A stretch of 32,000 nt of DNA, from positions 750,001 to 782,000 of the forward strand of contig NC_007494.2 in NCBI RefSeq assembly GCF_000012905.2, given 5' to 3'. Below, piece by piece: positions 1 through 27,400 of the stretch. The first letter of the stretch is position 1, and the number at the start of each line of letters is the position of its first letter. A program made the position numbers and the translations under genes. Under the pieces are notes generated by a model. That model made no database searches and was not told the origin of the DNA. It was given only the letters and a program-made list of their open reading frames with translations. The stretch is from Cereibacter sphaeroides 2.4.1. Its GTDB lineage: Bacteria; Pseudomonadota; Alphaproteobacteria; Rhodobacterales; Rhodobacteraceae.

Positions 1-1
1 G

Positions 2-226
2 CGCTGCAGTTTAGTATTTGCTGTCCCGCTGAACCGCGATCCAGGAACGCTTGTTGAAATTGGCCTTGCCATTGCGGCTGGCACGCCGGTCGTTACCTAC
101 GATCCGCGGCAAGAGAACAATAATACGATGGTGATCTGCGGCAGCGACGCCTACTCAGATGACTTGGACCAGTGCTTGAACTCGACGTTCGAACTTCTCG
201 CCAAACTGCGGGAGCAAGCGAAATGA
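2..226 (+). CDS. Nucleoside 2-deoxyribosyltransferase-like (NDT/DNPH1 fold) protein; only the C-terminal 74 codons are in the window
   Basis: Frame 2 is open from the window edge to TGA 224-226, and it is missing from the ORF track because it runs off the edge. The translation ...VFAVPLNRDPGTLVEIGLAIAAGTPVVTYDPRQENNNTMVICG... carries the D-x-G-T-x-x-E-x-G-x-A motif with the conserved Glu typical of this fold. Its stop overlaps the next start (ATGA at 223-226). Confidence 0.55.
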   Translation, partial: RCSLVFAVPLNRDPGTLVEIGLAIAAGTPVVTYDPRQENNNTMVICGSDAYSDDLDQCLNSTFELLAKLREQAK

Positions 227-846
227 GCTTCGCGCTATTAATGGCATCTGGCGGGTTGGACTCGACAACAGTTGCATACTGGCTCACCGAAAGGGGGGTA
301 CAATTTATTCCGGTCTTCTTCGACTACGGGCAGCACTGCGTGGAGACCGAGTGGGAAACACTTAAGGAGGTACTGCCAGCATCGGCTGCACATCCAGAAA
401 GAAATGATATCTCCGACCTTTTTAGGGGATCGAAGTCAAGGTTGATAACAGAGGCTGACCTTTGGAATGAAGAGGTGAAGGATGAAGATCTTTACGTGCC
501 TTACCGAACTCTTCTATTCTATTCTGCAGCTGCGGCACGTGCCCAGACACTGGGAGCGTTTGAGGTTTACACCGGCTTTATCAACAGCAACCGCGCTAAG
601 GAGATCGACTGTACGGCCGAGTTCATGAACAAGCTCGACGCGCTTACTGACTCGGTTGGTCCAGTCCGGTTCTTGTCACCGTTTCGCTTCTGGTCCAAGT
701 CAGAAGTCGCAAAGGAATCTATTCGACTGGGAGTTCCAATTGGGCGCACCTTCTCCTGCCAAGCTGCGAGCCTGATGCCTTGTGGCGCTTGCCCTAACTG
801 CGTCGAACGTCTAGCAGCGCTTCGAGAAACAGGGTTACTGGCATGA
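223..846 (+). CDS. QueC-like PP-loop ATPase (7-cyano-7-deazaguanine synthase family)
   Basis: I place the start at ATG 223 (MSFALLMASGGLDSTT...) with GGGAG 9 nt upstream, not at the GTG 172 used by the track. The protein has the SGGLDST PP-loop, FDYGQ and YVPYRTLLF (QueC VPxRN region). A C-terminal Cys cluster SCQAASLMPCGACPNCVER (C-x7-C-x2-C-x2-C) matches the QueC zinc site pattern. Confidence 0.85.
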   Translation: MSFALLMASGGLDSTTVAYWLTERGVQFIPVFFDYGQHCVETEWETLKEVLPASAAHPERNDISDLFRGSKSRLITEADLWNEEVKDEDLYVPYRTLLFYSAAAARAQTLGAFEVYTGFINSNRAKEIDCTAEFMNKLDALTDSVGPVRFLSPFRFWSKSEVAKESIRLGVPIGRTFSCQAASLMPCGACPNCVERLAALRETGLLA

Positions 847-1508
847 GCTCGATGGCTATAGACAACGACGCGGTGGAAATTCTCATTGCTGCACGGCGGG
901 TTGCAAACTTTGCGTGTCTCCAGGGCGTCCCTGCCGATTCGCGCCACCCTCGCGCGTGTTATCAGCACATGGGTGCGATCCTCGTCGACACAACGTTACA
1001 GGCTGGGCTGAATTACGCAAATGTGGTGCGGCCCAGAGTTACGCGTGCACTTGCGCTGTTTCCAGAAGCGACGACGATTGGCGCCCTCATAGAGATTGTT
1101 GAATCTGGCAAGAGCGCAGCGATTTTAAACTGGCAGCATCCGTTAAAGATATCAAGATTCGAGAGGATTGTAAATTTCTTACATCGCAACGATGTTCGAG
1201 ACTCGAAGGAACTTCGAAGAAGGCTTTCGAATAAAGATTTTTGTGCTTTACTTCAAGATATCCACGGAGTGGGGCCAAAAACGGTGGACTACATGGCGTG
1301 CTTGGTTGGCGTTGAGTCTATTGCGGTAGATCGACACATAAGAAGCTTTGCCCAAGAAGTTGGCATACTGGATAAAGACTATTCCTTCCTGAAACATGTG
1401 TTTTGTGCAGCCGCGGATCTACTCGCTATATCGAGACGAGAATTCGATGCATGGGTTTGGCGTCACGAAGTTGAGCGCAAGTCACCACAAATGGCCTTTT
1501 CGTTCTAG
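843..1508 (+). CDS. HhH-GPD superfamily DNA glycosylase-like protein (EndoIII/OGG-like, no Fe-S cluster motif)
   Basis: ATG 843 overlaps the QueC-like stop (ATGA). The helix-hairpin-helix LLQDIHGVGPKTVDYMACLVGVESIAVDRHIRSFA has a Lys in GVGPKT and an Asp 17 residues later. This mirrors the EndoIII-type GVGRKTA...VDTH catalytic pair. There is no C-terminal 4-Cys cluster. Confidence 0.65.
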   Translation: MSSMAIDNDAVEILIAARRVANFACLQGVPADSRHPRACYQHMGAILVDTTLQAGLNYANVVRPRVTRALALFPEATTIGALIEIVESGKSAAILNWQHPLKISRFERIVNFLHRNDVRDSKELRRRLSNKDFCALLQDIHGVGPKTVDYMACLVGVESIAVDRHIRSFAQEVGILDKDYSFLKHVFCAAADLLAISRREFDAWVWRHEVERKSPQMAFSF

Positions 1509-1725
1509 AGCTGGAGCTGACCTGTTTCATTCCGATCTGCTGTTGTTTTTCCTTATCTAGATCAGACGCACGTGAATGTTCGCGGAAGGCAGCGACTAGC
1601 ACCCGATACGAGCTTAAGAATTGGCCGTTTTGCCGACATCCTGACCAAGCTCAGCATTTTGCTCGAAGGTTCGCCCCGATACGTCTTCAAGGAAGGTTCA
1701 GCTTTCGCCCAATAGCGATGGTAGA

Positions 1726-1742
1726 GGAGCGAGCTTCGCTCC
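1726..1742. terminator. Short GC stem-loop in the convergent spacer, a possible terminator for the minus-strand operon
   Basis: GGAGCGA-GCT-TCGCTCC forms a 7-bp stem with a 3-nt loop, 26 nt past the dGTPase-like stop. No U-tract follows. Confidence 0.25.
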
Positions 1743-1767
1743 CCCGCAGATCTTACTTCTTGATCTG

Positions 1768-3189
1768 CTAGATGGGCTTAAACATGCTTTCCGCGACATC
1801 TGACTTGAGCCGAGCCCAGAACTCTACGGCATACCTATCCGTCATTCCTGCGACAAAGTCGCAAATGTGACGCGCCTGCAAATCCTTATCCCCACCGGCC
1901 TCCTGAACCCGCTTGCGCACGTCGTCGGGCATAAGCAGATGTCCGCTCTTCTTTTCCAGCGCCTCGAATATTTCCCCCACCAACTCGGTACCACGGTACT
2001 CGCCGAGCTTAACCCGGTTCGAGTAGATAGTTGACAGGAAAGTATATTGCTTCAGGATTTCCACTTTAATGCGCGTCTTCTTATCTAGCGCAGCTCGTGA
2101 GAGAGCAGGAAACTCTTCGTTTATTTCTAGTTCAACAGCGTTCATGAATTCGTGAACCAGTTCGGACGATAGCTTCATCCTCCTCCCTGCGTCCATGTTC
2201 ACCGCACGAGACGCCTTCATCGCGTTGATAAAACTTGAAAGATCCTTATTCCGTCGTTCGAACGGAAAGTCTTGCTCTCTGCTTTCGTCCACAGCAAAGA
2301 TGTCCCCGAAAAGAGCAACCAAGGTCGCCAAGACTTCTTGTGCGGTGATCTTCTCGCTGCAATCTTCCGCCAGCTGCTCAGTTGCCTTTTCCGCAACCCT
2401 CTTCAGCAAATCATCATCTGTAGCCAGAATTGAGGCAGGCGTTAGGAAACCTGCTTTAAGACTGTCTTCAAGATCGTAAACAGAATAAGCGATGTCGTCT
2501 GCAATATCCATTATTGCACATTCAACGGTCTTAAACTTGACGCCAGCCGGAAGGGCTTTCCCTCCCAAAACTCTTCTTTTTATCTCTGCGACAATCTTAG
2601 CTTCGGAGGCGTAGTACCCTTTTTGCGGACCATCACTACCGAAGCGTTCTTTATCTATCTCGTTGTCGTATTTCAGCACGGCAGCGAGTGTCCGAAAACA
2701 CAAGTTCATCCCGGCGCGCTCGTCGCCATCTACAGGCGCTTTGTACTTCGCCTTCTTTTCCAAGCGGCTTAAGATACGCAGCGTCTGAGCGTTCCCCTCG
2801 AATCCGCCGCGCATCTCCATCTTAGTGTTGAGTGCGCGCTCACCATTGTGGCCGAATGGGGGATGTCCGATGTCGTGGACAAGACCTGCCGCTGCGCAGA
2901 GTCGGCTGTCGATCCGCCGACCTCCCAGTTTTTCCGCATATACATAGTTCAAACGGTCTGCGATGCCTTCGGCGATTTGTGAGACCTCAAGTGAATGCGT
3001 CAGACGGTTTCTAAAGAAGTCGGACTCGTGTCCCGGAAATACCTGCGTTTTACCTTGCAGCCTTCTGAAGCTAGCGCTGTGGATGATCCTACCGAAATCC
3101 CTGACAACGGGCGGTCTCCAAGGGTCAGATGCCGAGTCCTCGCCGTTCTGGCGTAGCCAATCGTCAGATGTGTACATGTTCAACATCAT
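1768..3189 (-). CDS. dGTP triphosphohydrolase-like HD-domain phosphohydrolase (Dgt/SAMHD1-type dNTPase)
   Basis: The ORF has 473 codons. It contains RDFGRIIHSASFRRLQGKTQVF, the HD motifs RNRLTHSLEVSQIA and GLVHDIGHPPFGH, and the C-terminal ICDFVAGMTDRYA, all hallmarks of the dGTPase family. Confidence 0.9.
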   Translation of the reverse strand: MMLNMYTSDDWLRQNGEDSASDPWRPPVVRDFGRIIHSASFRRLQGKTQVFPGHESDFFRNRLTHSLEVSQIAEGIADRLNYVYAEKLGGRRIDSRLCAAAGLVHDIGHPPFGHNGERALNTKMEMRGGFEGNAQTLRILSRLEKKAKYKAPVDGDERAGMNLCFRTLAAVLKYDNEIDKERFGSDGPQKGYYASEAKIVAEIKRRVLGGKALPAGVKFKTVECAIMDIADDIAYSVYDLEDSLKAGFLTPASILATDDDLLKRVAEKATEQLAEDCSEKITAQEVLATLVALFGDIFAVDESREQDFPFERRNKDLSSFINAMKASRAVNMDAGRRMKLSSELVHEFMNAVELEINEEFPALSRAALDKKTRIKVEILKQYTFLSTIYSNRVKLGEYRGTELVGEIFEALEKKSGHLLMPDDVRKRVQEAGGDKDLQARHICDFVAGMTDRYAVEFWARLKSDVAESMFKPI

Positions 3190-3207
3190 TACTGCTACCG
3201 CAAATGC

Positions 3208-3369
3208 TCACGCTCGGGCCGAGCTGTTCAGCGCGCGCTCTTGCTGAAGTGCCGCTTTTCTTTCTTCTTGCTCACGCTTCATTTGCAGGCCCAGCCGTAC
3301 GGCTTCACGAAGGCTTTCCTGCCTCGCTTCTGCAGCTTCGCGAGCTTCTACTATCGCTTGATATGCCAT
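3208..3369 (-). CDS. 53-aa highly charged, predicted all-helical peptide of unknown function
   Basis: I place the start at ATG 3369 (MAYQAIVEAREAAEARQESLREAVRLGLQMKREQEERKAALQQ...), preceded by GAGGAGGA at good spacing. It sits 83 nt after the upstream gene and 18 nt before the dGTPase-like ATG. I recognise no family. Confidence 0.45.
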   Translation of the reverse strand: MAYQAIVEAREAAEARQESLREAVRLGLQMKREQEERKAALQQERALNSSARA

Positions 3370-3452
3370 GCTTGTCCTCCTCTGGCCATATTTCATGATA
3401 AGGAGCGATCCATCGTCCTACTCCCTGCTTTAGAATGCCCCGGCGTCAACTG

Positions 3453-4856
3453 CTAACGAGGACGCACGCGCGCAGGCACCCCAGCCTTTCGCAAAACATC
3501 GGCTAAATGGCTGGTTAGGCCCACCTTGCGATCCAGCATGATACCGGTTTGCGGCTTCAAGTCGCGGGCCAAAGACCTAAGCACCTCCAGCCCTTGAGAG
3601 ACATCGAAATCAAGCCACTCGTCTGCATCACCTGGCACAATGATGTCACCGTCGGACGTACTAGATCCGCGATGAAGTTGGACGATCCATAGCTCTGAGC
3701 CATCAAAGACCCATTCGAACCGACAAGCACCAAGCGCACAAGCGAGCCGGCCGTGTAGATCATTTACCTTTGCTAAGATCTCATCGGGAATTGGCTCGGG
3801 ATCCGCAAGCCCAACCATGAGGCGCTCTCCGGTTCCTTGGATCCCTTCTACAACGAGGCTCCCGCTCGACGTCTCTATAGCCGCGCCCGACCACTGCGCC
3901 GCAACACCCTGCTGCGATAGCACCGAGGAGATTGCGGTACCGTCAGGATCCTCGCGTTGGAGCAAGGCAAAAGGATCTCGCCACCCGCGCGCGGTGGTGA
4001 ACTTCCCGGGCACTTGCTCTCGCGGGCTTGTTCTTATCCACACTTCTGCAAGATCCGTAGATCGGCCAAAGGAGAAGGGCGCGATGCGTCGACCTATCAC
4101 CGTTGTCCTAGGAACTGGAAAGCCTTTAATCTCCGCAACCAGAAGTCCGTACACCTTGTCGCCGATCATTCGGCTAAAATCATTGGGCCACTCGATCTTC
4201 ACCAAGTCCCTTGGTAACGAATCCTCAGATAGTTCCCAGAAGATTACGTTGTCCATCTTCCAGCCTCGTGGTCTCGGATGTAGACTGAATTCAAGACGCC
4301 CATTCTGCCCATGTGAGAAGTCGGCCTCCACTCCATAGACGATTTTGAAAAGCTGTATAGCCATTGAGGTTGGGAGCCGGGCGAACCCTGGCTGCTCCAC
4401 ACCGCGCGGCGTCATGTCAGGGCGAAACTCCACTATGTCGCCGATCACCACGCCAGAAACGCCACCATCCGAAACATCAATCGTTTCGTTCACAATCGTG
4501 AACGCGCCCTCCTTGGCCATGCGCTCAACAGCAGCGACCGCTGCAGCCGCGTTGTCAATGCCGTAGATAAAGTCGCGGCTTTGGCTTTGGTGAGCATTAA
4601 AGCTACGAATGTTCACCGTCCTTTCGGAGCTTCGCTCGAAAAGAGCCTGTATGGCATCAGCAACAGATTCGAAGCGATGATTAGGTTCAATGCCAGAAAT
4701 TCGGCAAAACTGCAGCAAAGGACCTTCGACTGCCGGCGCGAAGCTCACAAACTGCGCCACATTGCAGGTTGCGGCCAAGCGATCCAACGTCTCATCTTTT
4801 CTGAAGACTGCCCCTTCAGGTTGATCAGAACTAGTTTGCCCAGCACCCAACTTCAT
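3453..4856 (-). CDS. PEP-utilising-enzyme-type phosphotransferase-like protein (PPDK_N-type ATP-grasp plus a C-terminal phosphohistidine swivel motif)
   Basis: ATG 4856 follows AAGGA. Residues ~230-400 follow the PPDK_N / PEP synthase / rifampicin phosphotransferase ATP-grasp pattern: GDKVYGLLVAEIKGFPVP, WIRTSPREQVPGKFTT, VLSQQGVAAQWSGAAI, EGIQGTGERLMVGLADPE, RFEWVFDGSELWIVQLH. Residues ~437-465, GIMLDRKVGLTSHLADVLRKAGVPARV, match the swivel-domain GG-x-TSH-x-A-x-x-x-R-x-x-G-x-P motif, with the His at codon 450 (nt 3507-3509). Confidence 0.7.
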   Translation of the reverse strand: MKLGAGQTSSDQPEGAVFRKDETLDRLAATCNVAQFVSFAPAVEGPLLQFCRISGIEPNHRFESVADAIQALFERSSERTVNIRSFNAHQSQSRDFIYGIDNAAAAVAAVERMAKEGAFTIVNETIDVSDGGVSGVVIGDIVEFRPDMTPRGVEQPGFARLPTSMAIQLFKIVYGVEADFSHGQNGRLEFSLHPRPRGWKMDNVIFWELSEDSLPRDLVKIEWPNDFSRMIGDKVYGLLVAEIKGFPVPRTTVIGRRIAPFSFGRSTDLAEVWIRTSPREQVPGKFTTARGWRDPFALLQREDPDGTAISSVLSQQGVAAQWSGAAIETSSGSLVVEGIQGTGERLMVGLADPEPIPDEILAKVNDLHGRLACALGACRFEWVFDGSELWIVQLHRGSSTSDGDIIVPGDADEWLDFDVSQGLEVLRSLARDLKPQTGIMLDRKVGLTSHLADVLRKAGVPARVRPR

Positions 4857-4907
4857 TTTCCTTCGGCTCTACAGCGCTCCGACGCACCATACGTGAGCGA
4901 GGTGTGC

Positions 4908-4922
4908 ATCCTCTCCGAGGAT
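4908..4922. promoter_or_regulatory. Inverted repeat upstream of the phosphotransferase-like gene, a possible operator
   Basis: ATCCTC-TCC-GAGGAT has perfect 6-bp arms and lies 52-66 nt upstream of ATG 4856 in the AT-richer leader. Confidence 0.2.
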
Positions 4923-5279
4923 TTCGCAACTTCCAAATGACCTTAACTCGAACCGGCGTAGTCAGGCCAACATAGACCTTTGAGCAGCCTGCACTTGGGG
5001 GCATCCAGCAGCTTCGCCAGGCACGGCGATCGCTTCCTTGAACATCCACGCGCGCGGCCCGTGAAAAAATTCCCGTGTTTTCTCTTATGGTTGCGGATCT
5101 TTCTCCGGTAGGCGGCATGAGGGACGGACTCGCGCAGCTGCTCATGTTCGCTGCTCAACTACACTAAGAGGAGACGCGCTCGTCACAGTGGCTCTGGCAT
5201 CCGTCCCGTCGTTGTATATGGGTCGTTCATCAGTGCAGGCCGGCTGTGGCCCTCGGTCCCGCAAGACAGGCATAGCAGC

Positions 5280-5858
5280 TTATAGCGGGCTCGGACCCTC
5301 AACGCCTCGGCGCGAGGGCCGTTCTGAACAGAACGACTGCATGTCTGAGCTGCCCGGACGTGCAGCCAAGAACATCCTGACCTCCCTCGCGCTCCGAAGC
5401 CGAATGATGGCCTTATCGCTGGGCGCACCAGCCACCAGCCGCTCGATCTGAGCCCGGCTGGTGATCCTCGTGTTCCAGATCCAGCGGTAGAAGGACCAGT
5501 CGAATTGCTCGAGGCAGCCGTCCGGTAGATCGGGACGCGTGCGCCCTCGATACTGAAGCGAGCGCAGGAACACGCGCCAGAGCCGGACATGGATCGGCAC
5601 ATCCAGCCAGATCAGCGTGTCGCAGCGTGCCAGCCGCTCCGGCCATGTCGCGGAGTGTCCGCCCTCGAAGATCCACTCCTTGCGCGCGTGAACTTCCTGG
5701 CACAGGCGGGTCTTCTCCTCGCGCGACCGCTCGACCCATCCGGTCGACCAGTGGATATGGTCGATGTGAACCACCGGCAGCCCAGTGCGCCTGCCGATCT
5801 CCCGGGCCAAGGTGGATTTGCCCGAGCCGGGCTGTCCGACGATCATGACTCGTTTCAT
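5280..5858 (-). CDS. P-loop kinase-fold protein, FlaR / DNA topology modulation protein-like (adenylate-kinase-related)
   Basis: I place the start at ATG 5858 (MKRVMIVGQPGSGKSTLAREIG...) with AGGAGG upstream. The Walker A motif and the collinear pattern ...WIFEGGHS...LIWLDVP...RTRPDLPDGC...FYRWIWN... resemble FlaR-type proteins as I recall them. The last ~28 codons look like a non-native tail. Confidence 0.75.
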   Translation of the reverse strand: MKRVMIVGQPGSGKSTLAREIGRRTGLPVVHIDHIHWSTGWVERSREEKTRLCQEVHARKEWIFEGGHSATWPERLARCDTLIWLDVPIHVRLWRVFLRSLQYRGRTRPDLPDGCLEQFDWSFYRWIWNTRITSRAQIERLVAGAPSDKAIIRLRSAREVRMFLAARPGSSDMQSFCSERPSRRGVEGPSPL

Positions 5859-6217
5859 GAGGGCCTCCTGCCAGTTCGCGAAAGCCCACCAGCGTAGCAT
5901 CGGAAGCTCCGTGCCTCAACCGCCTGTGCCTTGGCGGCGGCGGTGACCGGAGGAAGTCCCCTGCCCTGCCCACTCAGCATGGTCACTGCGGGGCCGCCTC
6001 GGCGAACTCGGGCAGACCAGGGCATCGTCTCGGCCGAGGGTGCCGGCCGGCGCAACGATTCCCGCTCCATGCGAAATCCATCGCCACGCCGGGCGGAAGG
6101 CCGCGTGCCCCCGCCGAGAGGCGCGGGACGGGACTCGAGCGGCCCGATTAGGGTCGGGATCGGTGATGGTCTACGCCTGCCGGGATCGCGCATGGCGTAG
6201 CTCCGAGCCTTGCAGCT

Positions 6218-6451
6218 TTAGAACCAGACTTGCCAGAATTTCCGGCGAGTCCGAAACGGAGGGCGCCCGCCCTGCAGCGCAAGGAACTCGCGCCAGCCCA
6301 GCCCTGAGCGCCACTTCCGGGTGGCGAGCGAGAGGGGCACATGGCGCACCGGCAGGCTGTTGATATTGTCCACGACTGTCGGCCCGGGAAAGCCAAAGAC
6401 GAGGCCTCGGCGCTGAAGAGGCGATGGGCTGGGTGGCCGGCGGTTGCTCAT
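6218..6451 (-). CDS. Hypothetical 77-aa protein
   Basis: The ATG follows GGAAGGA at 7-nt spacing and third positions are GC-rich. I recognise no family, and it lies in a region crowded with overlapping shadow ORFs. Confidence 0.3.
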   Translation of the reverse strand: MSNRRPPSPSPLQRRGLVFGFPGPTVVDNINSLPVRHVPLSLATRKWRSGLGWREFLALQGGRPPFRTRRKFWQVWF

Positions 6452-6669
6452 GGTCGTGTCCTTCCTGCCAGTTGATGATCATGAAGGCCCGACTTCCAGA
6501 GGCATCCAGATCGCCGCATCAGGGAGTCAGAGAGAACGCCCGGAAAGAGGATATCCGGGGTCAGGAGCATCATGTAGCGCGGCGGGACAGGATTGCGAGG
6601 TGCATCTTCCGATGGCAGGACGCCCCCTTGAGGGGCCGGACGGCAAGGCCTCCGGGCACCTCGGACGGG

Positions 6670-7044: not shown

Positions 7045-7788
7045 GGTGGTCCTCCTGTCCTGGGTTCGTTTGCGGGTCCGAGCCATACCCGACGATGGTT
7101 CGGAGCCGTCGCCCGTGCGCGACCGGGCCTCACCCATCCGGCACGACAGTCGCATGGGCCGTCGCGACCACAGCGCGATCCCGCCGCAGGGCGTCATCGA
7201 CGGTGCGCAGACCAGTACGACGACGCTTGCGCCCGGTCCAGTGCTCGACCGTAATGTAGAACTGGTCCGCGGCCAGCAAACTTCCCTCGGCGGCGGGGCG
7301 CCATTGACCTCGGCGCAAATCTCGCATGTCCCCGACGGGAGGTTGTCGCCGAGGTGGAACGTACTCCGGAAGAAAAGTCCCAGGGGATGGCGCGCGCTTT
7401 CCTGGGATCTCTCCTCATGACTTGCCACGCGGCGCTGTCTGACGAAGAACCGAAGGAGGCGCGAGATCCTGATGCGGCGAATAGTGCTCCGCCTTGGCAC
7501 CTCGTCCTGACGGCCGGCTCTCGATCAGTTCTTGTTCGGGGGGCGCCTCGTTCCCATATGAAAATATCACCGAGGCATCAGAGCCGTCGCCTGCCGTCCG
7601 GGCCACGATCCGTCGGCCGGCGCTGTCCGGGCGACATTCGGCCCTTCCCGTCGTCCGGTTCCGGCACCGCAAAGAAGCCCTGAACCGGGTGCCGCGCAAA
7701 CGGCGACCAAGCGCACGTTCGTATGACGTCCCGAGCGGCCGGAATAGGCGCGAGATGACCGATCCCGCCAGCAGAACAAGGAACAGGA

Positions 7789-7998
7789 ATGCGCTCTCCC
7801 AAGTCTGACCCACCGCGGTCCAGTCACGGCCAGGCCGCACAGCGCGCCGACGCCGCAGCGAAGGCGATCATCGCCGCCGAAACCGACGCGCGGAGGGCGC
7901 AGGTCGCGCGGCTGAAGGCGGCACGGCTCGAACGCGATGCGGCGCTCGCGGACCTGCCCCCGGCGCCAAAGCCGGTCCGCAAATCCGGCCGGAAATGA
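7789..7998 (+). CDS. Hypothetical 69-aa Ala/Arg-rich helical protein
   Basis: The ATG is preceded by AAGGAACAGGA and third positions are GC-rich. The segment ...AETDARRAQVARLKAARLERDAAL... resembles small conserved alphaproteobacterial proteins. A short stem-loop CCGCA-GGTT-TGCGG directly follows the stop. Confidence 0.4.
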   Translation: MRSPKSDPPRSSHGQAAQRADAAAKAIIAAETDARRAQVARLKAARLERDAALADLPPAPKPVRKSGRK

Positions 7999-8277
7999 CC
8001 GCAGGTTTGCGGGAGGGCTTCCGGTTCTGCCCCGGAAAATGAGGACCGGTCCCTCCTCTCGCAGGAGCCGGTCCACCGTCAGGATAACAGGCACCCGCCT
8101 CCGAACCCGTCGATCCTGCTAGAGGCGGCCTTGCAGCGGCATAGGGCACCGCACACCAGATGTTGCAGGGCTTGAGGCAACTCTTGGGCACCCCCCAGCC
8201 CTACGAAGAATCGGCGATGGCGTCTGTGCCGGCGTTTTACAAACGGACCGCAAGCTGTTGATTTTCTTAGGTCGGGC

Positions 8278-9140
8278 TCAGCTGCGCTTTACAGGGTGCA
8301 GCCTGCGTTTGCAGGCACTTGGCCCCGACTCATAATCGTGGGGTCGGGGGTTCAAGTCCCCTCTCGCCACCATCGCCCCCCCCACAATCTGTTGGTCGAT
8401 GCCGAGCAGCCGCTCCATGTTGCCGCGGACCTCGACCAGGACGTCGCCGGTCTCAACCTTGGGATGGACAGTGATCTCGGTGATGATCCGGCGCAGGGCC
8501 TCGACCGAGGTCGCGTCGAACGTGCCGTCGCCCCGCTGCAGCGCGGCCGAAAGATCGGCGATGGCGCGCGTATAGGCAGCCGTCGCCTGCGGATGCAGCT
8601 CCACCACATTGTCCTCGCTCGAGGCGATCTCGAGCTCGCTCCGCGCCATCTCTGCGGCCTGCTTGGCCTGCAGCACCCGGGCGTCGGCTTCCTCGCCCTC
8701 AATCAGGCCACGCGCCATCATGTCCACCAGCCGCATGTAGCGGGCTCGGCTGTCCGCCGCGGCCCGTTCCAGCCGTGCCCGGTCGCGGCGCGCCGTCTCC
8801 GTCAGGCGCCGGCGCTCCTCGGCATAGACCCGGACGAACTCCTTCAGATAGTCCGGGCGGTCGAGTTGCGCCCGAAGGCGAAGGAAGATCGCCTCCTCGA
8901 TCTTCTCGAGCCGATAGCGCGCCTTGTTCTCGCAGCTTCCGCTCTCGTTCGCCGTGCTGCACCGGATCCGGATCGCCTCGCCGCAACGGTCGTGGATGCT
9001 CATACCGCCCCCGCAGCAGGCGCACCGGATCAGGCCTGAGAAAGGACGGGGCGGCGCCTTGGTGATATTGCCCATCCGCACCGCCTCCGCCTGCTGCGCG
9101 TGGCGCCGGACGGCGGCCGCGAAGAGCGGCCGGGGCACGG
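8278..9140 (-). pseudogene. Large serine recombinase, C-terminal part only (zinc ribbon plus coiled coil); the catalytic resolvase domain is missing
   Basis: The segment ...PPRPFSGLIRCACCGGGMSIHDRCGEAIRIRCSTANESGSCENKARYRLEKIEEAIF... is a recombinase zinc beta-ribbon, followed by a long coiled coil. The N-terminal 230 codons of the track ORF (8278-9789) are antisense to the portal gene. The last ~35 codons (...MVARGDLNPRPHDYES...) are the antisense translation of the tRNA-like fragment. Confidence 0.6.
8324..8372 (+). tRNA. tRNA-Met(CAT)-like 3' fragment (anticodon arm to CCA), probably an attachment-site remnant rather than a functional gene
   Basis: The anticodon arm is CCCGA-CTCATAA-TCGTG with one C-T mismatch. 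It is followed by GGGTC, the T arm GGGGG-TTCAAGT-CCCCT, and CTCGCCACCA. No complementary 5' acceptor strand or D arm lies upstream, and the acceptor/discriminator is one nt short of canonical. Confidence 0.45.
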
Positions 9141-9149
9141 GGCGGGCGA

Positions 9150-9972
9150 GCTCGAGCTGATCGACCTCGTGCGCCAGTCCGGCTGCAGCGTGCTCCGCGC
9201 CGGCCGGGACCGGTTCTACGACTTCGAGGACGGCGCGGGCCTCCGCCGCCGCGCGCCTGCCCGCGCCATGATCCATCTGCGCTACATGGCCGAGGACGGC
9301 TGGACGGGGCGCAGCCCGCTCGAGGTCGCGGCCGAGAGCGTGGGCCTCGCGCTCGCAGGCCAGGAGTCGGCGGCCCGCGCGGCCTCGGGCGTCACCGCCC
9401 GTGCCGTGATCCGGCTCCGCGACGATTACGAGGATGACGAGGCGCGCGTCCGCAGCGCCCGCCGGGTGGCGGCCGCGCTCCGCGCGCCGGAGGTCGAGGG
9501 CTTCCCGATCCTCGGCGAGGGCGAGGATGTGAAGACGCTCGACATGAAGGCGGCCGATCAGGAACTCCTCGGCAGCCGCAAGTTCGACCGCGAGCAGATC
9601 GCGGCGATCTACCGGGTGCCGCCGGCGAAGCTCCAGATGATGGAATACGGGGTGAAGGCCAACGGCGAGCAGCAGGCCATCGACTATCTCACCGACTGTC
9701 TCCTGCATTGGGCGAAGCAGGTCGAGGACCAGCTGGCGCTCGGCGTGCTGACCGAGGCCGAGCGCCGGGCGGGCCTCTTCTTCCGCCACGACTTCGGCGC
9801 CCTGCTCCGGCCCACGACGCGCGAGCGGTACGAAGCCCTCGCCAAGGCGGTGGGCGGCCCGATCCTGACCCCGAACGAGGCCCGGCGGATCGACGGCTAC
9901 GATCCCATCGAGGGCGGCGACCGGCTGAACCCGGCGCCGAACATGACCCGCAGCGAGGAGACAGATCCATGA
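9150..9972 (+). pseudogene. Phage portal protein, HK97 family, N-terminally truncated
   Basis: The segment ...IHLRYMAEDGWTGRSPLEVAAESVGLALAGQE...LGSRKFDREQIAAIYRVPPAKLQMM... follows the HK97-type portal pattern. About 130 N-terminal residues and any credible start are missing. The stop overlaps the protease ATG (ATGA at 9969-9972). Confidence 0.6.
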
Positions 9973-10886
9973 CCCGCACGCTCGCCAGCCTCTTCGGCCC
10001 TCTGCAGCCCATGGCGCTGGCCGAGGATCTCGCGGCGCCCCTCCTCGCGATGCCGATCCCAGAGGGGGCGGCGGATCCCGCCGCTGCGGCCCGTGCTCCG
10101 GCGGCCGGCCCGACCGTTCCCGACCGCTTCACCGTCGCGCGCGGCCTCGCGGTGGTGCCGGTGCGCGGGATCCTCACGCCGAACATGGCGCAGTACGAGC
10201 GCTGGTTCGGCTGGGCGACCTATCATGGCCTCGCCGAGACGATGGCGCACCTCGCGGCCAGCGAGGATGCCGCCGCCATCGTGCTCGAGATCGACAGCCC
10301 CGGCGGCCTCGTCTGCGGGATCGAGGCGGCGGCCGAGGCCATCGCGGCGGCCGCCGCCGTGAAGCCGGTCCATGCCCTCGTCTCGCCGCTCGCGGCTTCC
10401 GCCGCCTATTGGCTCGCCTCGCAGGCCTCCGAGATCGTGATGACGCCCGGCGCCGTCGCGGGCTCCATCGGCGTGGCGCTGACCGCCGCAGCCCACGTCC
10501 AGCCCGGCGCGAACGGCGCGCAGATCTTCGAGATGAGCTCCCGCCACGCCCGCGCCAAGCGCCCCGACGCCTCGACCGAGGCCGGCCGCGCCGAGCTCCA
10601 GCGCAGCCTCGACGAGGCCGAGGCCGCCTTCCACGCCGCCGTCTCCGCCGGCCGCGCCATCCCCGCAGCCGAGCTCGCCGCCCGCCTCAGCGTCACCGAC
10701 GATCCGCAGGACGGCGGCGCGACCTTCCGCGCCCCCGAGGCCATCCGCCGCGGCCTCGCCGACCGCATCGAGACCCGCGCCGCCTTCTATGCCCGCCTCG
10801 CCGCCCGCACCGCGCCGAAGCCCCGCAGCCCCAGTCGCGCCTTCGCCGCCCGCGCCGCCGCGGCGGCAGCGCTGGCCCGGAGCTGA
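9969..10886 (+). CDS. Phage head maturation protease, S49 (SppA/ClpP-like) family
   Basis: I place the start at ATG 9969 (MTRTLASLFG...). The segment IVLEIDSPGGLVCGIEAAAEAI...KPVHALVSPLAASAAYWLASQASEIVMTPGAVAGSIGV is the S49 peptidase core. Confidence 0.8.
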   Translation: MTRTLASLFGPLQPMALAEDLAAPLLAMPIPEGAADPAAAARAPAAGPTVPDRFTVARGLAVVPVRGILTPNMAQYERWFGWATYHGLAETMAHLAASEDAAAIVLEIDSPGGLVCGIEAAAEAIAAAAAVKPVHALVSPLAASAAYWLASQASEIVMTPGAVAGSIGVALTAAAHVQPGANGAQIFEMSSRHARAKRPDASTEAGRAELQRSLDEAEAAFHAAVSAGRAIPAAELAARLSVTDDPQDGGATFRAPEAIRRGLADRIETRAAFYARLAARTAPKPRSPSRAFAARAAAAAALARS

Positions 10887-10913
10887 TCGGCACGCGAGCT
10901 GCCGCGTCAGGGT

Positions 10914-11321
10914 TCAGGACAGCTCGACCCCGAAGAGGCTTCTCGTCCATTCGACAAACAGGCCGAAAGGCCGCGCCAGCAGGATCATGAGAATAATGGC
11001 CGACCCGATGGCCGTTCCGGCTTCAGCGAAGCTCGCTCCCGCGATGAGAAGCGTGGCGCCATAGACCGGCGCCTGGAACGACAGGAATGCCAGAATGTCG
11101 GTCAGAAAGGCGCTCCAGCGGTTCCGGGGGGCCGTTCGCCTCACCAGCCAATCGCGCCATCGCGTGTAGGGTCTGCCCGTCAAAACCATGACTGGCACCA
11201 TGAGAAGACGTGTGGCCAGAACCTCGGACGGTGCCATTCCTGCGATGAGCAACTCCGAGAAGGTCGCTACCGCGGTGAAGAAGATGACCGTGGCAACGGT
11301 GTCGATGATGAAGAGGCGCAT
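10914..11321 (-). CDS. alaE: AlaE-like L-alanine exporter (small 4-TM efflux protein) inserted in the head module
   Basis: 135 codons run from ATG 11321 (MRLFIIDTVATVIFF...). The collinear motifs DT..., GM, TRLLMVPV, PY..WRD and LTDILAFLSFQAPVYGATLLIAG match E. coli AlaE/YgaW as I recall it. GC is lower than in the flanking phage genes. The track's 554-aa ORF is an artefactual upstream extension. Confidence 0.7.
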   Translation of the reverse strand: MRLFIIDTVATVIFFTAVATFSELLIAGMAPSEVLATRLLMVPVMVLTGRPYTRWRDWLVRRTAPRNRWSAFLTDILAFLSFQAPVYGATLLIAGASFAEAGTAIGSAIILMILLARPFGLFVEWTRSLFGVELS

Positions 11322-11477
11322 GGGCGGTGCATTATCATGATGCGTCCGCCGGCGCACCTCTGAGCCGAAGACCCCGGCACCTTCGGGCTCCAGCCAATCC
11401 CCTTCACCCCTTCCCATCCCCCGCCTGTGGCGGGGCCGTTCGGCTGCGCGGATGCAGCCCTGCCAAGAGAGGATCCC

Positions 11478-12558
11478 ATGGCACGACAGAACCTCGACGA
11501 CCTGCGCCGCGCCCGGAAGGCCGCGGCCGACACGATGGCCGCGGTGGCCGCCCGCATCGGCGCGCTCGAGGCGGCCGAGGCGCCGGACGCCGCCGCTCTC
11601 GAGACCGAGACTGCGGCCTTTGCCGCTGCCGAAGCCGCCTTTGCCAAAGCCGATGCCGCCGTGACGCGCGCGGCGGCCGTGGAAGCCGCACAGGCCGCCG
11701 CGGCGCAGGGCGATGGCGCGGGCGCCGGGGGCGGAGCGGGTGCTGCCGGCGCCGATGCCGTGCCGGCCGTGGCGTCCGATCCGGCGCATCGCGGGGTGGC
11801 GGCGGGCTTCATGGTCCAGGCGCTCGCGCGGACCAAGGGCGACCGCGACAAGGCGGCCCGCCTCCTCGAGGCCGAGGGCCATGGCGCGATCTCGGCCGCG
11901 CTCTCGGGGGCCAGCGAAGGCGCGGGCGGCGTCACCATCCCGCGCCCCCAGGCGGCCGAGCTGATCGAGATGCTGCGCGCCCGCGTCGTCGTGCGCGCCT
12001 CGGGCGCCCGCACGCTGCCGATGCCCGCGGGCGAGATGCGGCACGCGAAGCAGGTGGGCTCGGCCGTCGCCGCCTATGCCGCCGAGAATGCCGCCATCGC
12101 GCCGAGCCAGCCCAGCTTCGACAAGATCGACCAGAGCTTCAAGAAACTCTTGGGCATGGTGCCCATCGGTAACTCGCTCCTGCGCCACTCGGGCGTGGCG
12201 ATGGCGCAGCTCGTGCGCGACGATCTCCTGAAGGTCATGGCGCTCCGCGAGGATCTCGCGTTCCTGCGCGGCGATGGCAGCGCCGACACGCCGAAGGGGC
12301 TGCGGCACTGGATGCTGCCGGCGAACTGGTCCGCCGCTCCGGTGGCCGCCACGCCGGCGGCGGCTGAGGCGGCGATCCGGCGCACGGTGTCGCTCGTCGA
12401 GGATGCCGATGTGGGCATGGTCTCGCCCGGCTGGATCATGCGGGCCTCGACGAAGAACTGGCTCGCGAGCCTGAAGGACCCGAACGGCAACCCGCTCTTC
12501 CCCTCCATCGGGGCGTCCGCGCAGCTCATGGGCTTCCCGATCCGGACGAGCTCGCAGA
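11478..12558 (+). pseudogene. HK97-family major capsid protein, C-terminally truncated
   Basis: ATG 11478 (MARQNLDDLRR...) opens an Ala-rich coiled delta-domain. The capsid core then runs ...IPRPQAAELIEMLRARVVV...FKKLLGMVPIGNSLL...LREDLAFLRGDGSADTPKGL...QLMGFPIRTSSQ. Family similarity stops at ~12557, and the frame then reads through the holin RBS and start to a stop at 12659. Confidence 0.65.
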
Positions 12559-12595
12559 GACCCGCGCGACGAGCGCACACAACAGGAGCGGCGCG

Positions 12596-12961
12596 ATGCC
12601 GAAAGAGGGACTCATCGACACCATCGCCGCGCTCAGGGGCGGGTCCATCGCCACGCTGATCGCGGCGGCCATGGGACGGCTCCTGTATCACACCAACGAG
12701 GTCCGCGCCCGCCGCCGCGCCTTCTTCGGCCGCGAGTTCCTCTGGGAGATCCCCGCCCTCGTCCTCATGACCTTCGTCGGCGAGGCACTGAGCTCCTCGC
12801 TCAACCTCGACCGCCGGGCGGCGATGGGGCTCGTGGCGATGCTCGCCTACCTCGGCCCGCGGGGCACCAAGGCGATGGCCGAGCGGCTCTGGCGGGGACT
12901 CTGCTGCACAAGTCGACTGATGATCGGCACGCCCCTTTCCCCGGACATACCTATCCTGTGA
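12596..12961 (+). CDS. LydA-like phage holin (holin superfamily III), with its 3' end probably replaced by IS sequence
   Basis: ATG 12596 follows AGGAG at 7-nt spacing. The segment ...GGSIATLIAAAMGRLLY...FLWEIPALVLMTFVGEALSSSLNLDRRAAMGLVAMLAYLGPRGTKAMAERL parallels phage P1 LydA as I recall it. The tail WRGLCCTSRLMIGTPLSPDIPIL looks non-native. Confidence 0.5.
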   Translation: MPKEGLIDTIAALRGGSIATLIAAAMGRLLYHTNEVRARRRAFFGREFLWEIPALVLMTFVGEALSSSLNLDRRAAMGLVAMLAYLGPRGTKAMAERLWRGLCCTSRLMIGTPLSPDIPIL

Positions 12962-24241: not shown

Positions 24242-24417
24242 AAGCAGTTCTCAATTTGTTGCGATGGGCAGCTTTACGCGCATCCGCAGGGCGAATTCTC
24301 TGAACCACCCCGTCCTGCCGATGCCTGGGAAGATGTTCCGCCCCGGCGACCCTCTCCTCCCGCACACGATGGCGCCCGCCGCCGTGGCCAGACGAACCGG
24401 GTGGCGGGGACAAAGCT

Positions 24418-27400
24418 GTGTGGATCAGACATTCGCGTAAGGCGGCCGCTGCCGCGGCCTTCGGTGCAACCCTCGTCCCGGCCCTCCTGTGGCTTCTGAC
24501 CGGCCTCGCTCAGGCGCAGGATGCGGTCGACTACGACTGGCGCGTCCAGCTCGACGGCTCGGCCGGCCTCGCCATCGCGGCAGGCGGCGTGGCGCTCTAC
24601 AAGGTGGATGTGCAGAACACGGGCACCGCGGGCGCCCCGCCGACGCGGATCGAGACCAACATCCCCGCCAACACGATCTTCCGCCCGGACCTGTCCTCGG
24701 CCAGCTGCGCCGTGGTGGGCAGCCTCGTCGACTGCGCCATTCCCGCCCTCGCCGAGGACGCATCCACCGTCGTGGACGTGGCGTTCGAGACGCTGGACGA
24801 AGGCACCTTCGTCCTCTTCGCCCGCGTCCCCGACACCGATGCGCTGGCCGGGAACAACTACGAGGAAGTCACCACGACCGTGGAGCGCGGCGCGGACATC
24901 TCGGTCTCGCTGACCGCCGATGCGACCGTGCCCTCGGGCGGCACGGTGCATTATGAAGTGCGGGTCGAGAACGAGGGGCCCCACACGTCCGAGGCGTTCG
25001 AGGTCGAATTCCCCGTTCCCACGGGCGTCGTCGACATGACGGGTCCCGCCGGCTGCACGCGGTCCGGCGGCACCTTCCTCTGCCGGGTGGCGGACCCTCT
25101 CGCCGTGGGCGACAGCCTCGCCTTCGACTTCGCCGGTCAGGTGACGGCCGCATCCAATTCGACCGTGGCCGCCTCGGTCGCGATCATGGGCCAGCAGCCG
25201 GCCGATGCCGATTCCACCAACAACCTCGCCACGGCCAGCACCTCCGTCACCGCGGGCAGCGACCTGCGCATCGTGAAGTCGCGCACGCCCTCGGGCACCA
25301 TTCTCGTGGGTGACGAACTGGTCTTCATCCTGTCGCCCAGCTATCGCGGCGACGCGCCCGGCGGGACCGTGACGGTGACGGATCCACTGCCCGCGGCCTA
25401 CAGCTTCGTCTCGGTTCAGGCGGACGCGGGCTGGACCTGCGGCGAGAGCGGCGGCACCGTGACCTGCGCCCGCCCTGCCCCCACCACCGGCGCGGGCGAG
25501 GACGTGTCCATAGGCGAGATCCGCATCACCGCCCGCGCGGTCGATCCGGGAACGCCCCTCAACATCGCGACGGTCTCCGCCGCCGACACCACCGATCCGT
25601 TCCCGGGCAACAACAGCTCGTCGGTGAGCGTGACTATCGAGGCGCCCTTCGTCGATCTCGCCCTGTCCAAATCGGCGCCCTCTCCGGCCCTCGCCGTGAG
25701 CGGCAGCCCCTTCGATTACAGGATCGGCGTGACGAACCGCGGCAATGCGGGCTTCGACGGCACCGTGCGGGTGACGGATGCGGTGCCCGTGGGCCTCACG
25801 ATCGAGTCTGTGACAGGCTCGGGCTGGAGCTGTGCGCCCCTGCCCGTCACGGGCCCCGCCGACCTCGTCTGCGACCGGCCCTATGACGGGGCGGCGCCGC
25901 TTGCGGCCGGGGGCCGCGTGCCGGATCTGGTGCTGACCGCGGTCGCCCTGCAGGACGGGCCGGTGCGCAACACGGCTGGCGTCGAGACCGTCGACGGCAC
26001 GCTCGAGGACACGACGCCGGGCAACAACTCGGGCGGCGCCGACGTGACGGTGAGCCAACCGCCGTTCGCCGCCGACATCGGCCTGACCAAGAGCACTGCC
26101 GCCACCGCGATTGCGGGCGAGCCGCAGACCTTCGAGGTCGAGATCACCAACTTCGGCCCCACCGAGGCCGCGAACGTGCGCTTCAGCGATCCGCTGACCG
26201 GTCTCGCGAACGGCGCGACCTCGGGCGCGGGCAACGGCCTCGTGAGCATCTCGGTCGAGCCCTTCGCGGCGACGGGGGCCAGCTGCGGCGGTGCAACGAC
26301 CGGCGCGACCTCGGTCACGGCGAGCTGCTCCTTCGACACGCTCCCCGTCTGCACCCCCGGCCTCGACTGCCCGCGGATCACCCTCGTGACCACCCCGGGC
26401 GGCAATGCGGGCGCGCGGACCAACACCGCGACCGTCGTCTCGCAGACGACGGCCGACCCGGCCTCGGCCAACAACAGCGCGAGCGCGAGCTTCACCGTCG
26501 AACCCCGGGCCGACGTCACGCTCGAGAAGCTGGCCAACCCCGATCCCGTCGCCGTGGGCCAGTCGCTGAACTATGTGCTGACGGCGAAGAACGTGGCGAA
26601 CGGCCTCAGCCAGGCCGAGAACGTGACGGTTTCCGACACGCTGCCCTCGGGGCTCGTGTTCCTGTCGGCCAGCCCCTCCACGGGCAGCTGCGCCACGCAG
26701 CCGGCGGCCGGCAGCGCCACCTCGGGCGGCAACAATCAGGTGGTGTGCAACCTCGGCACCATCAACAACGGCTCGCAGCAGACGGTGACGATCGTCGTGC
26801 GGCCGCTTCTGTCGCTGCTGGAATCGACCCTCGTCAACCGGGCCGAGGTCACCACCAGCACGACCGAGACCGATGAGACCAACAACGCGGCCGAGGCTTC
26901 GGTCGACGTGACCTTCCCCCGCTTCGACCTGCTGATCGCCAAGACCGACACGGTCGATCCGGTGACGGTGGGCGACGAGACGATCTATCGCATCCTCGTG
27001 ACGAACAACGGCCCCTCGGCGGCGGAGAATGTGATCGTCACCGACACGCTTCCCGCGACGCGGCTGAGCTTCGTGCAGGCCAGCGCCCCGGCGGACGGGT
27101 CCTGCGGCACCACGCCCGCGGCGGGCGCCATCGGCGGTCAGGTGATCTGCAGCGTGCCCTATCTCGCCTCGGGCGAGAGCCGCACCTTCGAGGTGACGAT
27201 GCGGGCCGAGGCCAAGGGCTCGGTCACCAACACGGCCTCGGTGACGGCCGACCGCGCCGGCGACTTCGAGAGCCGCACCGACAACAACACGGCGACGCAG
27301 AACACGACGCTGCGCACCCGGGTGGACGTGCAGGTGGCCAGCAAGACGCCCTCGGCGCCGTCGGTGCCGCTGCGGGAGGATTTCACCTTCGACGTGGTGA

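Follow-up and report, generated by a model that had tools for sequence, protein, structure and literature searches.

A mobile four-gene cassette with a QueC-like protein, a PfkB-NDT fusion and a glycine-tailed partner in a Cereibacter sphaeroides prophage region: a candidate system of nucleobase-protein conjugation

We analysed a stretch of 32,000 nucleotides of Cereibacter sphaeroides 2.4.1 (contig NC_007494.2, positions 750,001 to 782,000; hereafter the window), which opens with the downstream part of a four-gene cassette containing a QueC-like gene. Three consecutive plus-strand frames are joined by ATGA stop/start overlaps at 223-226 and 843-846. They encode the end of a protein in which a PfkB-type domain is fused to a nucleoside 2'-deoxyribosyltransferase (NDT) domain (gene 1), the QueC-like protein (gene 2) and an OGG-like glycosylase (gene 3). 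A preliminary description of this DNA had pointed to the overlaps, to the catalytic motifs of the three proteins, to low GC content and to a neighbouring dNTPase gene; all of these are present. The three genes are real, but the edge of the window cuts the operon: gene 1 is truncated, its PfkB part lies outside the window, and identical loci place a fourth gene further upstream. Many contigs, Cereibacter/Rhodobacter sphaeroides records among them, encode identical QueC-like and OGG-like proteins, and in these identical loci the operon starts with a gene for a 125-residue protein, followed by the complete 442-residue PfkB-NDT fusion.

Gene 1 in the window is the 3' part of an open reading frame (ORF) that runs off the window start and reads ...DPGTLVEIGLAIAAGTPVV. 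It contains the NDT nucleophile Glu within the sequence DPGTLVEIG. Against the NDT family PF05014 (gathering cut-off, 28.8 bits) the fragment scored below the cut-off (E = 1.3e-5, 25.7 bits), and the full-length protein reached 55.7 bits (E = 6.6e-15), which bears out the earlier assignment. The NDT residues Y309, D363, D381 and E387 do not vary among 37 homologues and can be aligned with NDTs of known structure. The N-terminal 300 residues matched the Pfam PfkB model weakly in sequence (16.9 bits, cut-off 25.8). An AlphaFold2 model of the full protein had a mean predicted local distance difference test (pLDDT) score of 91 and a predicted template modelling score of 0.91, and a Foldseek search with its N-terminal 300 residues returned ketohexokinase (5.6e-13), followed closely by ribokinase, nucleoside kinase and pseudouridine kinase. 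This comparison of models settles the N-terminal domain as a predicted ribokinase/PfkB fold, in which the GG and GVGD238 motifs are invariant.

The QueC-like product of gene 2 retains the PP-loop SGGLDST (residues 9-15), Y35-G-Q-H, R95 and E127-I-D129-C. Its four zinc cysteines are arranged as C179-x7-C187-xx-C190-xx-C193, with a first spacing of x7 and not x8. It matched the QueC models of Pfam (1.6e-32) and PADLOC (1.4e-24), fell below the cut-off of the NCBIfam QueC equivalog TIGR00364 (91.4 bits, cut-off 150.3), and scored 14.6 bits against the QatC model NF041925 (cut-off 280). Its best profile matches in the PDB were equally Cap9 (9nto_B, 1e-13) and QueC (2pg3, 1.3e-13), and it keeps the Asp (D129) and Arg (R95) with which Cap9 binds the base of NDG. 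Y35, R99, Y131 (in YPDC) and Y189 make up the catalytic signature that is essential in E. coli QueC (Libby et al. 2026). Two of these four positions are kept in the QueC-like protein (Y35 and R95), and the equivalents of Y131 and Y189 are replaced. The annotation pipelines of NCBI (PGAP) and of the Joint Genome Institute (JGI) label the family '7-cyano-7-deazaguanine synthase'. Since the protein scores under the equivalog cut-off and two tyrosines essential in E. coli are replaced, this label is, judging from the sequences, probably a propagated misannotation. No Rfam match to a preQ1 riboswitch was found upstream of the cassette, and folE, queD, queE and other que genes are absent from the flanks of the identical loci and from the commonest neighbour families of 80 related loci described below.

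In the OGG-like product of gene 3, the helix-hairpin-helix (HhH) motif GVGPK146T and the motif VD163RH, which contain the Lys/Asp pair, are likewise invariant in 37 homologues. The protein matched the PADLOC OGG model (2.2e-6) and reached only 0.05 with Pfam Ogg-HhH, under its cut-off. The PADLOC model was matched by 33 of the 37 family members, with a best E value of 4.8e-10, in line with the glycosylase-like reading of the preliminary description. Matches to structures of MagIII, EndoIII and archaeal OGG were weak but consistent. The QueC and OGG models of PADLOC appear to stand for Cap9 and Cap11 from type IV of the anti-phage signalling system based on cyclic oligonucleotides (CBASS).

The 125-residue protein is encoded directly upstream of the PfkB-NDT gene in the identical loci, from a TTG start, and gave no match in Pfam or PADLOC. 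Among 73 such proteins from the related loci, 72 start with MG, the consensus being M-G-S-[ST]-G-S-G-x-[FLI]-[ST]-D-Y-[PS]-G. After this start come a Gly/Ser-rich segment whose length varies, then a D-x-C motif and a domain that is conserved; the start itself is retained in homologues at 31-40% identity. A profile search of 1.84 billion representative sequences recovered 312 clusters of the small protein, nearly all stand-alone proteins of 110-140 residues. Among the 122 clusters with an intact N terminus, residue 2 is Gly in 106 and Glu in 10; the start M-E-S in place of M-G-S characterizes about 9% of the distant clusters (P0420, P0422, P0448 and others). In the one full Glu2 locus analysed (L162, 5001-7998), the pocket motif FINSNHAKEIDC of the QueC-like protein is replaced by FIQSDLATGDAS, which suggests at the sequence level that the tail of the small protein and the pocket of the QueC-like protein co-vary. 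In the AlphaFold2 model residues 1-32 are disordered and residues 33-125 have a pLDDT of about 96. With this folded domain Foldseek found the HIRAN domain of human HLTF (6kcs, 4xzg, 4s0n, 5bnh) and lp_0118 (3k2y), at E values of 4.5e-4 to 2.5e-3, a probability of 1.00 and root-mean-square deviations of 2.6-3.5 A over about 96 columns. One metagenomic protein of 526 residues (P0423) carries the HIRAN-like domain in frame with a PfkB domain and without the MGS start; this single case may be a real fusion or an artefact of gene calling or assembly.

A scan of a genome collection confirmed 166 loci among 185,579 species genomes, of which 80 were fetched and compared. These 80 come from Alpha-, Beta-, Gamma- and Deltaproteobacteria, Acidobacteria, Chlorobiota and Verrucomicrobia. 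By tblastn, the QueC-like and OGG-like genes were found in all 80; 79 loci also have the PfkB-NDT gene, and 73 have the gene for the small protein. The genes always follow one another as small protein, PfkB-NDT, QueC-like and OGG-like. Missing genes are explained by contig ends, an insertion sequence (L059) or a deletion (L088). In the first of these decayed copies an IS3-type transposase gene splits the small gene (6188-6665); in the second, a deletion has left the N-terminal 130 residues of a dGTP triphosphohydrolase (dGTPase) joined to the final 22 of the NDT domain (7459-8004). Cassette genes mostly join through 4-bp overlaps, and the pairwise-distance matrices of the four proteins correlate with one another (r = 0.74-0.94, 69 loci). 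In 57 of 70 loci the cassette has a lower GC content than its flanks. We also found the cassette on 23 viral contigs of IMG/VR. A plasmid collection held eight records with a QueC-like relative, and both of the two examined contain the cassette. In Bacillus mycoides plasmid p509 (L158, 5311-7633), PfkB-NDT and QueC-like parts form a single fusion of 658 residues, annotated '7-cyano-7-deazaguanine synthase', and the small protein has 118 residues and begins MGSTGTGRFGDY. An OGG-like ORF is missing from this variant, which has a NUDIX gene 75 bp upstream and, close by, a Septu-like AAA/HNH pair. A blastn search of E. coli genomes gave no match to the copy of the cassette from Kosakonia. Taken together, the four genes form a cassette that is self-contained, widespread and horizontally mobile.

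Table 1. Cassette genes within the window and the minus-strand genes beside them
Feature	Position	Strand	Remarks
PfkB-NDT end (last 74 codons and stop)	2-226	+	C-terminal NDT part; nucleophile Glu at nt 56-58
QueC-like PP-loop ATP-pyrophosphatase, 207 aa	223-846	+	Pfam QueC, PADLOC QueC
OGG-type HhH-GPD glycosylase, 221 aa	843-1508	+	PADLOC OGG model
Anti-phage-type dGTP triphosphohydrolase	1768-3189	-	NCBIfam; convergent with cassette; recurrent neighbour, not a core part
61-aa ORF	3208-3396	-	Upstream of dGTPase on minus strand
467-aa protein, family unassigned by Pfam, NCBIfam, PADLOC and PDB	3453-4856	-	Upstream of dGTPase on minus strand

The genes around the cassette were then compared (Table 1). 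The dNTPase noticed earlier is a dGTPase that scored 405.8 bits against the NCBIfam anti-phage dGTPase (cut-off 400). The flanks of the 80 loci are heterogeneous: the 132 nearest neighbours include 92 Pfam families, and the anti-phage dGTPase is the commonest of these neighbours (12 of 132). Other neighbours include Septu, RT-protease, HNH, integrase, transposase and toxin-antitoxin genes. CD-NTase and tRNA-guanine transglycosylase (TGT) genes, the KAP ATPase QatA, the TatD nuclease QatD and a restriction component are not among the commonest neighbour families of these loci. A dGTPase flanks the cassette in 12-14 of the 80 loci and about 85% of loci are without one. The flanking enzymes fall into at least four clades, with 25-45% identity between clades, and both their side and their orientation vary. 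Their association with the cassette is recurrent and independent; it may be functional, through control of the dGTP pool, or may reflect co-location in islands. Loci with an adjoining dGTPase of the anti-phage type include, besides the window, L018, L019, L022, L028, L035, L039 and L040. In the window, the dGTPase, the 61-residue ORF and the 467-residue protein (1768-4856, minus strand) form a module that travels together. Five further loci (L045, L056, L066, L076 and L077), which belong to Cohaesibacter, Phyllobacterium and, in three cases, Mesorhizobium, carry it immediately downstream of the cassette, with identities of 65-81%. The 467-residue protein had no match in Pfam, NCBIfam, PADLOC or PDB sequences, nor the 61-residue ORF in Pfam, NCBIfam or PDB.

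The low GC content covers positions 1-5000 (50-56%, against 64-75% in the rest of the window), and this island sits within a C. sphaeroides prophage region of about 70% GC. In the identical loci, prophage genes lie on both sides (holin, endolysin, Dam methylase, truncated portal, S49 protease and capsid genes), together with a serine-recombinase-like gene. Within the region 8278-12659 of the window, the island ends near a gene of the latter kind, whose match covers only the Zn-ribbon domain. Adjoining the island is a portal gene, of which the match to the Pfam model is limited to model positions 84-320; the S49 protease and capsid genes follow it. The island may have integrated into the head module of the prophage. 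In another strain (L003) the same island adjoins dctPM genes. Inside the island a P-loop protein (window 5280-5900, minus strand) comes near to the NCBIfam 'DNA topology modulation protein' (171 bits, cut-off 215). A minus-strand gene for 250 residues upstream in C. sphaeroides, with a weak match to HEPN_AbiU2 (0.008), was considered and rejected as a part of the cassette; it is unconserved in every other locus. Several very long ORFs between 14615 and 31944 are without a Pfam match, the largest being of 1916 residues (24274-30024, minus strand), and some may be spurious given DNA of 70% GC. A scan of positions 1-5300 for promoters and terminators gave no more sites than shuffled sequence.

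We then considered how the four products might act together, beginning with two systems that contain QueC-family enzymes. In type IV CBASS, Cap9 attaches 7-carboxy-7-deazaguanine (CDG) to the CD-NTase through an amide linkage at Gly2; for CdnD the N-terminal peptide that becomes modified is GGSGGSFGSGFDPR, and the acceptor motif is M(G/S)G(G/S)GG (Wassarman et al. 2025). The TGT-like Cap10 binds the tethered base and has its catalytic Asp in position at N9, and is proposed to move N9 of the tethered NDG onto ribose through a covalent Asp intermediate (Wassarman et al. 2025). The OGG-like Cap11 is optional, dispensable for defence and for NDG formation, and proposed to reverse the transfer (Wassarman et al. 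2025). QatB, in the second system, has a disordered tail starting with MGTS, in which Gly2 is essential (Gao, Wassarman and Kranzusch 2026), and the substitution G2D abolishes defence in Qat and type IV CBASS alike (Gao et al. 2026; Wassarman et al. 2025). The start of our small protein resembles in sequence the Gly2 acceptor motifs of QatB and of the type IV CBASS CD-NTases. This conserved Gly tail makes a protein N terminus, in place of a free base or of DNA, the likely substrate. The NDT domain may stand in the place of Cap10, because an NDT carries out glycosyl transfer at N9 with 2'-deoxyribose through a covalent intermediate, as a TGT does on ribose, and this is the same kind of reaction as that proposed for Cap10.

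On this basis we propose that the cassette is a third architecture of N-terminal nucleobase-protein conjugation by QueC-family enzymes, beside type IV CBASS and QatABCD, with NDT-PfkB in place of Cap10; we regard this reading as evenly poised between right and wrong. After removal of Met1, the QueC-like enzyme would adenylate a CDG-like carboxylate with ATP and join it in amide linkage to the alpha-amine of Gly2 of the 125-residue partner, whose disordered Gly/Ser tail of 25-35 residues would reach into the enzyme during tagging. By analogy with Cap9, this step may equally well hold or fail. More tentatively, in a step that we hold less likely right than wrong, the NDT would then act through a deoxyribosyl-enzyme intermediate at Glu387, either placing 2'-deoxyribose on N9 of the tethered base or exchanging the base into a deoxynucleotide, and the ribokinase-fold domain would phosphorylate the sugar. 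The product of this step would be a protein-tethered nucleotide of the 7-deaza-deoxyguanosine (7-deaza-dG) type. The HIRAN-like domain might conceivably take it to DNA ends, where the conjugate would block or mark invading DNA. The OGG-like glycosylase, by analogy with the role proposed for Cap11, would cut such N-glycosidic bonds and so limit or reverse the reaction. A fuller claim is in our view doubtful: that the NDT-kinase builds a 2'-deoxynucleotide on the Gly2-tethered base, that the resulting nucleotide, linked to protein, can be attached to DNA or incorporated in it, and that the Cap11-like glycosylase reverses the modification. A role in conflict or defence is suggested by the mobility of the cassette and by its neighbours, recurrent anti-phage dGTPases among them. 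The genomic context thus supports in outline the defence reading of the preliminary description, and the architecture and the chemistry proposed for Cap10 do the same, by analogy, for its alternative of a new system with an NDT-fold enzyme where a TGT would stand.

Several observations weigh against this proposal. The base-stacking Tyr of Cap9 (Y115) and QueC (Y131) is an invariant Glu (E127) in the family and the position of QueC Y189 is an invariant Gln, so the ligand may not be CDG. Because Glu occupies position 2 in about 9% of small-protein clusters, the alpha-amine of Gly2 is no universal acceptor. Pfam HIRAN gave no match to the small protein at E values up to 1, the likeness being one of fold only, and what we take to be the NPYD loop of HLTF appears to be missing; DNA-end binding is therefore a guess. 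In the kinase domain the NxxE motif of PfkB proteins is replaced by STSS. PADLOC v2 has no model for the PfkB-NDT or small proteins. NDT and PfkB enzymes usually work on free nucleosides, which leaves room for a small-molecule pathway. The modification itself, the donor base and the anti-phage effect are all things that we infer.

Such a small-molecule pathway, yielding a free nucleotide, is the main rival. In it the QueC-like enzyme would make a free 7-deazaguanine base of the amide or nitrile type, the NDT would add 2'-deoxyribose and the PfkB domain would phosphorylate it, and the resulting 7-deaza-dG nucleotide would poison phage polymerases or enter DNA before replication. The OGG-like protein would clean host DNA, the dGTPase or NUDIX protein would lower competing dGTP, and the small protein would serve in regulation or sensing. 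For each of the three enzyme folds there are precedents on free nucleosides or free bases, and the catalytic residues are intact. Recurrence of dGTPases of at least four clades beside the cassette, and of a NUDIX gene in Bacillus, recalls the dATPase and pyrophosphatase partners of Z-genome phages, and carriage on IMG/VR viral contigs would also suit such a pathway. However, it leaves unexplained a co-evolving, translationally coupled small protein that is conserved most strongly in an N-terminal MGS[ST]GSG tail of the QatB/CdnD type. In addition, two tyrosines that E. coli QueC needs to form preQ0 are replaced, folE, queD and queE are not nearby, about 85% of loci have no dGTPase, and most loci are chromosomal islands and not phage replication modules. 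We therefore consider this pathway unlikely, and still prefer conjugation to the protein N terminus. The presence of a DNA glycosylase fold with its Lys/Asp pair and of a HIRAN-like fold, and the occurrence of 7-deazaguanines in bacterial and phage DNA (Libby et al. 2026), could instead point to a Dpd-like modification that separates self from non-self DNA. Here the QueC-like protein would make a 7-deazaguanine, which the HhH-GPD and NDT enzymes together would put in the place of guanine in DNA, and the HIRAN-like protein would target DNA. DpdA/TGT, DpdB and DpdC are lacking, though, and no restriction component is conserved with the cassette. The Bacillus variant does without the OGG-like gene, whose closest relative Cap11 is dispensable for defence and NDG formation, and such a scheme, which we judge to be quite improbable, does not account for the N-terminal Gly tail.

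Two further explanations tie the cassette to established operons. Libby et al. (2026, Biochem J 483:1357) described, within PF06508, a mostly proteobacterial 'Cluster 4' in which a PfkB-NDT (PF00294-PF05014) fusion is a neighbour in 89%. They read it as purine salvage, a guess there, which counts against a conjugation system. The PGAP names 7-cyano-7-deazaguanine synthase and nucleoside 2-deoxyribosyltransferase also speak for salvage. Housekeeping salvage of purines or queuosine is nevertheless hard to reconcile with a sporadic distribution (166 loci in the whole species collection), with low GC, location in prophages, plasmids and islands and defence-type neighbours, or with a score under the QueC equivalog cut-off and no riboswitch. 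It offers no role to the OGG-like (Cap11-type) or MGS-tail proteins, and we find it very improbable. A housekeeping queuosine operon was rejected on score (91 against 150 bits), on the two replaced tyrosines, on the neighbours, which include no que genes, and on the lack of an upstream Rfam match, in agreement with the preliminary description. That description had also suggested that the trio is the tail of a type IV CBASS-like operon. The matches of genes 2 and 3 to the PADLOC QueC and OGG models would fit a type IV CBASS or Qat operon of which only the 3' end falls inside the window. The operon begins with the small gene and the PfkB-NDT gene, upstream of which the neighbours are heterogeneous. 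No CD-NTase, TGT, QatA or QatD appears in the Pfam annotations of the identical C. sphaeroides loci, which show no que genes either, or among the commonest neighbour families of the 80 related ones, and the QatC score is far below its cut-off. The suggestion is thus refuted, with next to no chance of being right.

Protein deazaguanylation was discovered only in 2025, and two questions surround it: what receives the tethered base in type IV CBASS, and what QatC produces. The cassette amounts to an independent natural experiment on them, since it would combine the same ligase, a like Gly-tail acceptor and an OGG-type partner with a different transfer enzyme. The chemistry of this enzyme, 2'-deoxyribosyl transfer to purine N9, is well understood, and it is fused to a sugar or nucleoside kinase. 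The proposal predicts that the mass of the small protein shifts by about +176 Da, the NDG shift reported for CdnD, and then by an estimated +292 and +372 Da, approximately. A protein-linked deoxynucleotide, if true, would be a previously unknown post-translational modification, deoxynucleotidylation through the base, and by analogy would reveal the role of Cap10. The finding also corrects the annotation '7-cyano-7-deazaguanine synthase' repeated across many genomes, adds two unannotated families (the MGS-tail HIRAN-like protein and the Cap11-like glycosylase), and flags a recurrent partnership with anti-phage dGTPases. The cassette is essentially undescribed. A literature search, of incomplete coverage, on combinations of HIRAN, QueC, deoxyribosyltransferase, PfkB and glycosylase found nothing beyond Libby et al. 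(2026), whose Cluster 4 is the single mention.

Comparison with known systems places the cassette among QueC-family enzymes as follows. Its QueC-like protein almost certainly belongs to Cluster 4: it is about 10 residues shorter than QueC, has the SGGxDS and YGQ motifs and neighbours a PfkB-NDT protein. The published Cys motif, CH(x)5CxxCxGCxK, differs from SCQ(x)6CGACPNCVER in the cassette, with no exact match, and Libby et al. (2026) mention no MGS-tail protein, OGG-like gene, or mobile or defence context; the small protein and the OGG-like gene were probably missed there since neither clears the Pfam threshold. With canonical QueC the QueC-like protein has in common the fold, the PP-loop, the zinc site and the equivalents of Y35, R99 and D133, whereas the equivalents of Y131 and Y189 are Glu and Gln, the TIGR00364 score is under the cut-off, and linkage to queD/queE and a riboswitch are absent. 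QatABCD likewise pairs a QueC-family enzyme with a small partner of no known function that has a long disordered MG[TS]S N terminus, and in both systems the base pocket departs from that of canonical QueC. However, QatC has about 400 residues with N- and C-terminal extensions, in contrast to the 207 residues of the QueC-like protein, to which the QatC model does not match; the cassette lacks the QatA ATPase and the QatD TatD nuclease, and QatB is helical, whereas the partner in the cassette is beta-rich and HIRAN-like. From type IV CBASS the cassette differs in having no CD-NTase, cyclic-nucleotide effector or TGT fold. Its partner is a 125-residue HIRAN-like protein and not a CD-NTase, its base-exchange enzyme is an NDT, with 2'-deoxyribose chemistry, fused to a PfkB kinase, and the base-stacking Tyr of Cap9 is Glu in its QueC-like protein. 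Common to both are a QueC-family ligase of minimal size, with Cap9 as the top PDB match, together with an OGG-type glycosylase; a partner with a flexible N-terminal tail beginning M-G-[GS]-S-G...; and, adjoining the ligase, an enzyme that accepts purine N9 and acts by way of a covalent glycosyl-enzyme intermediate.

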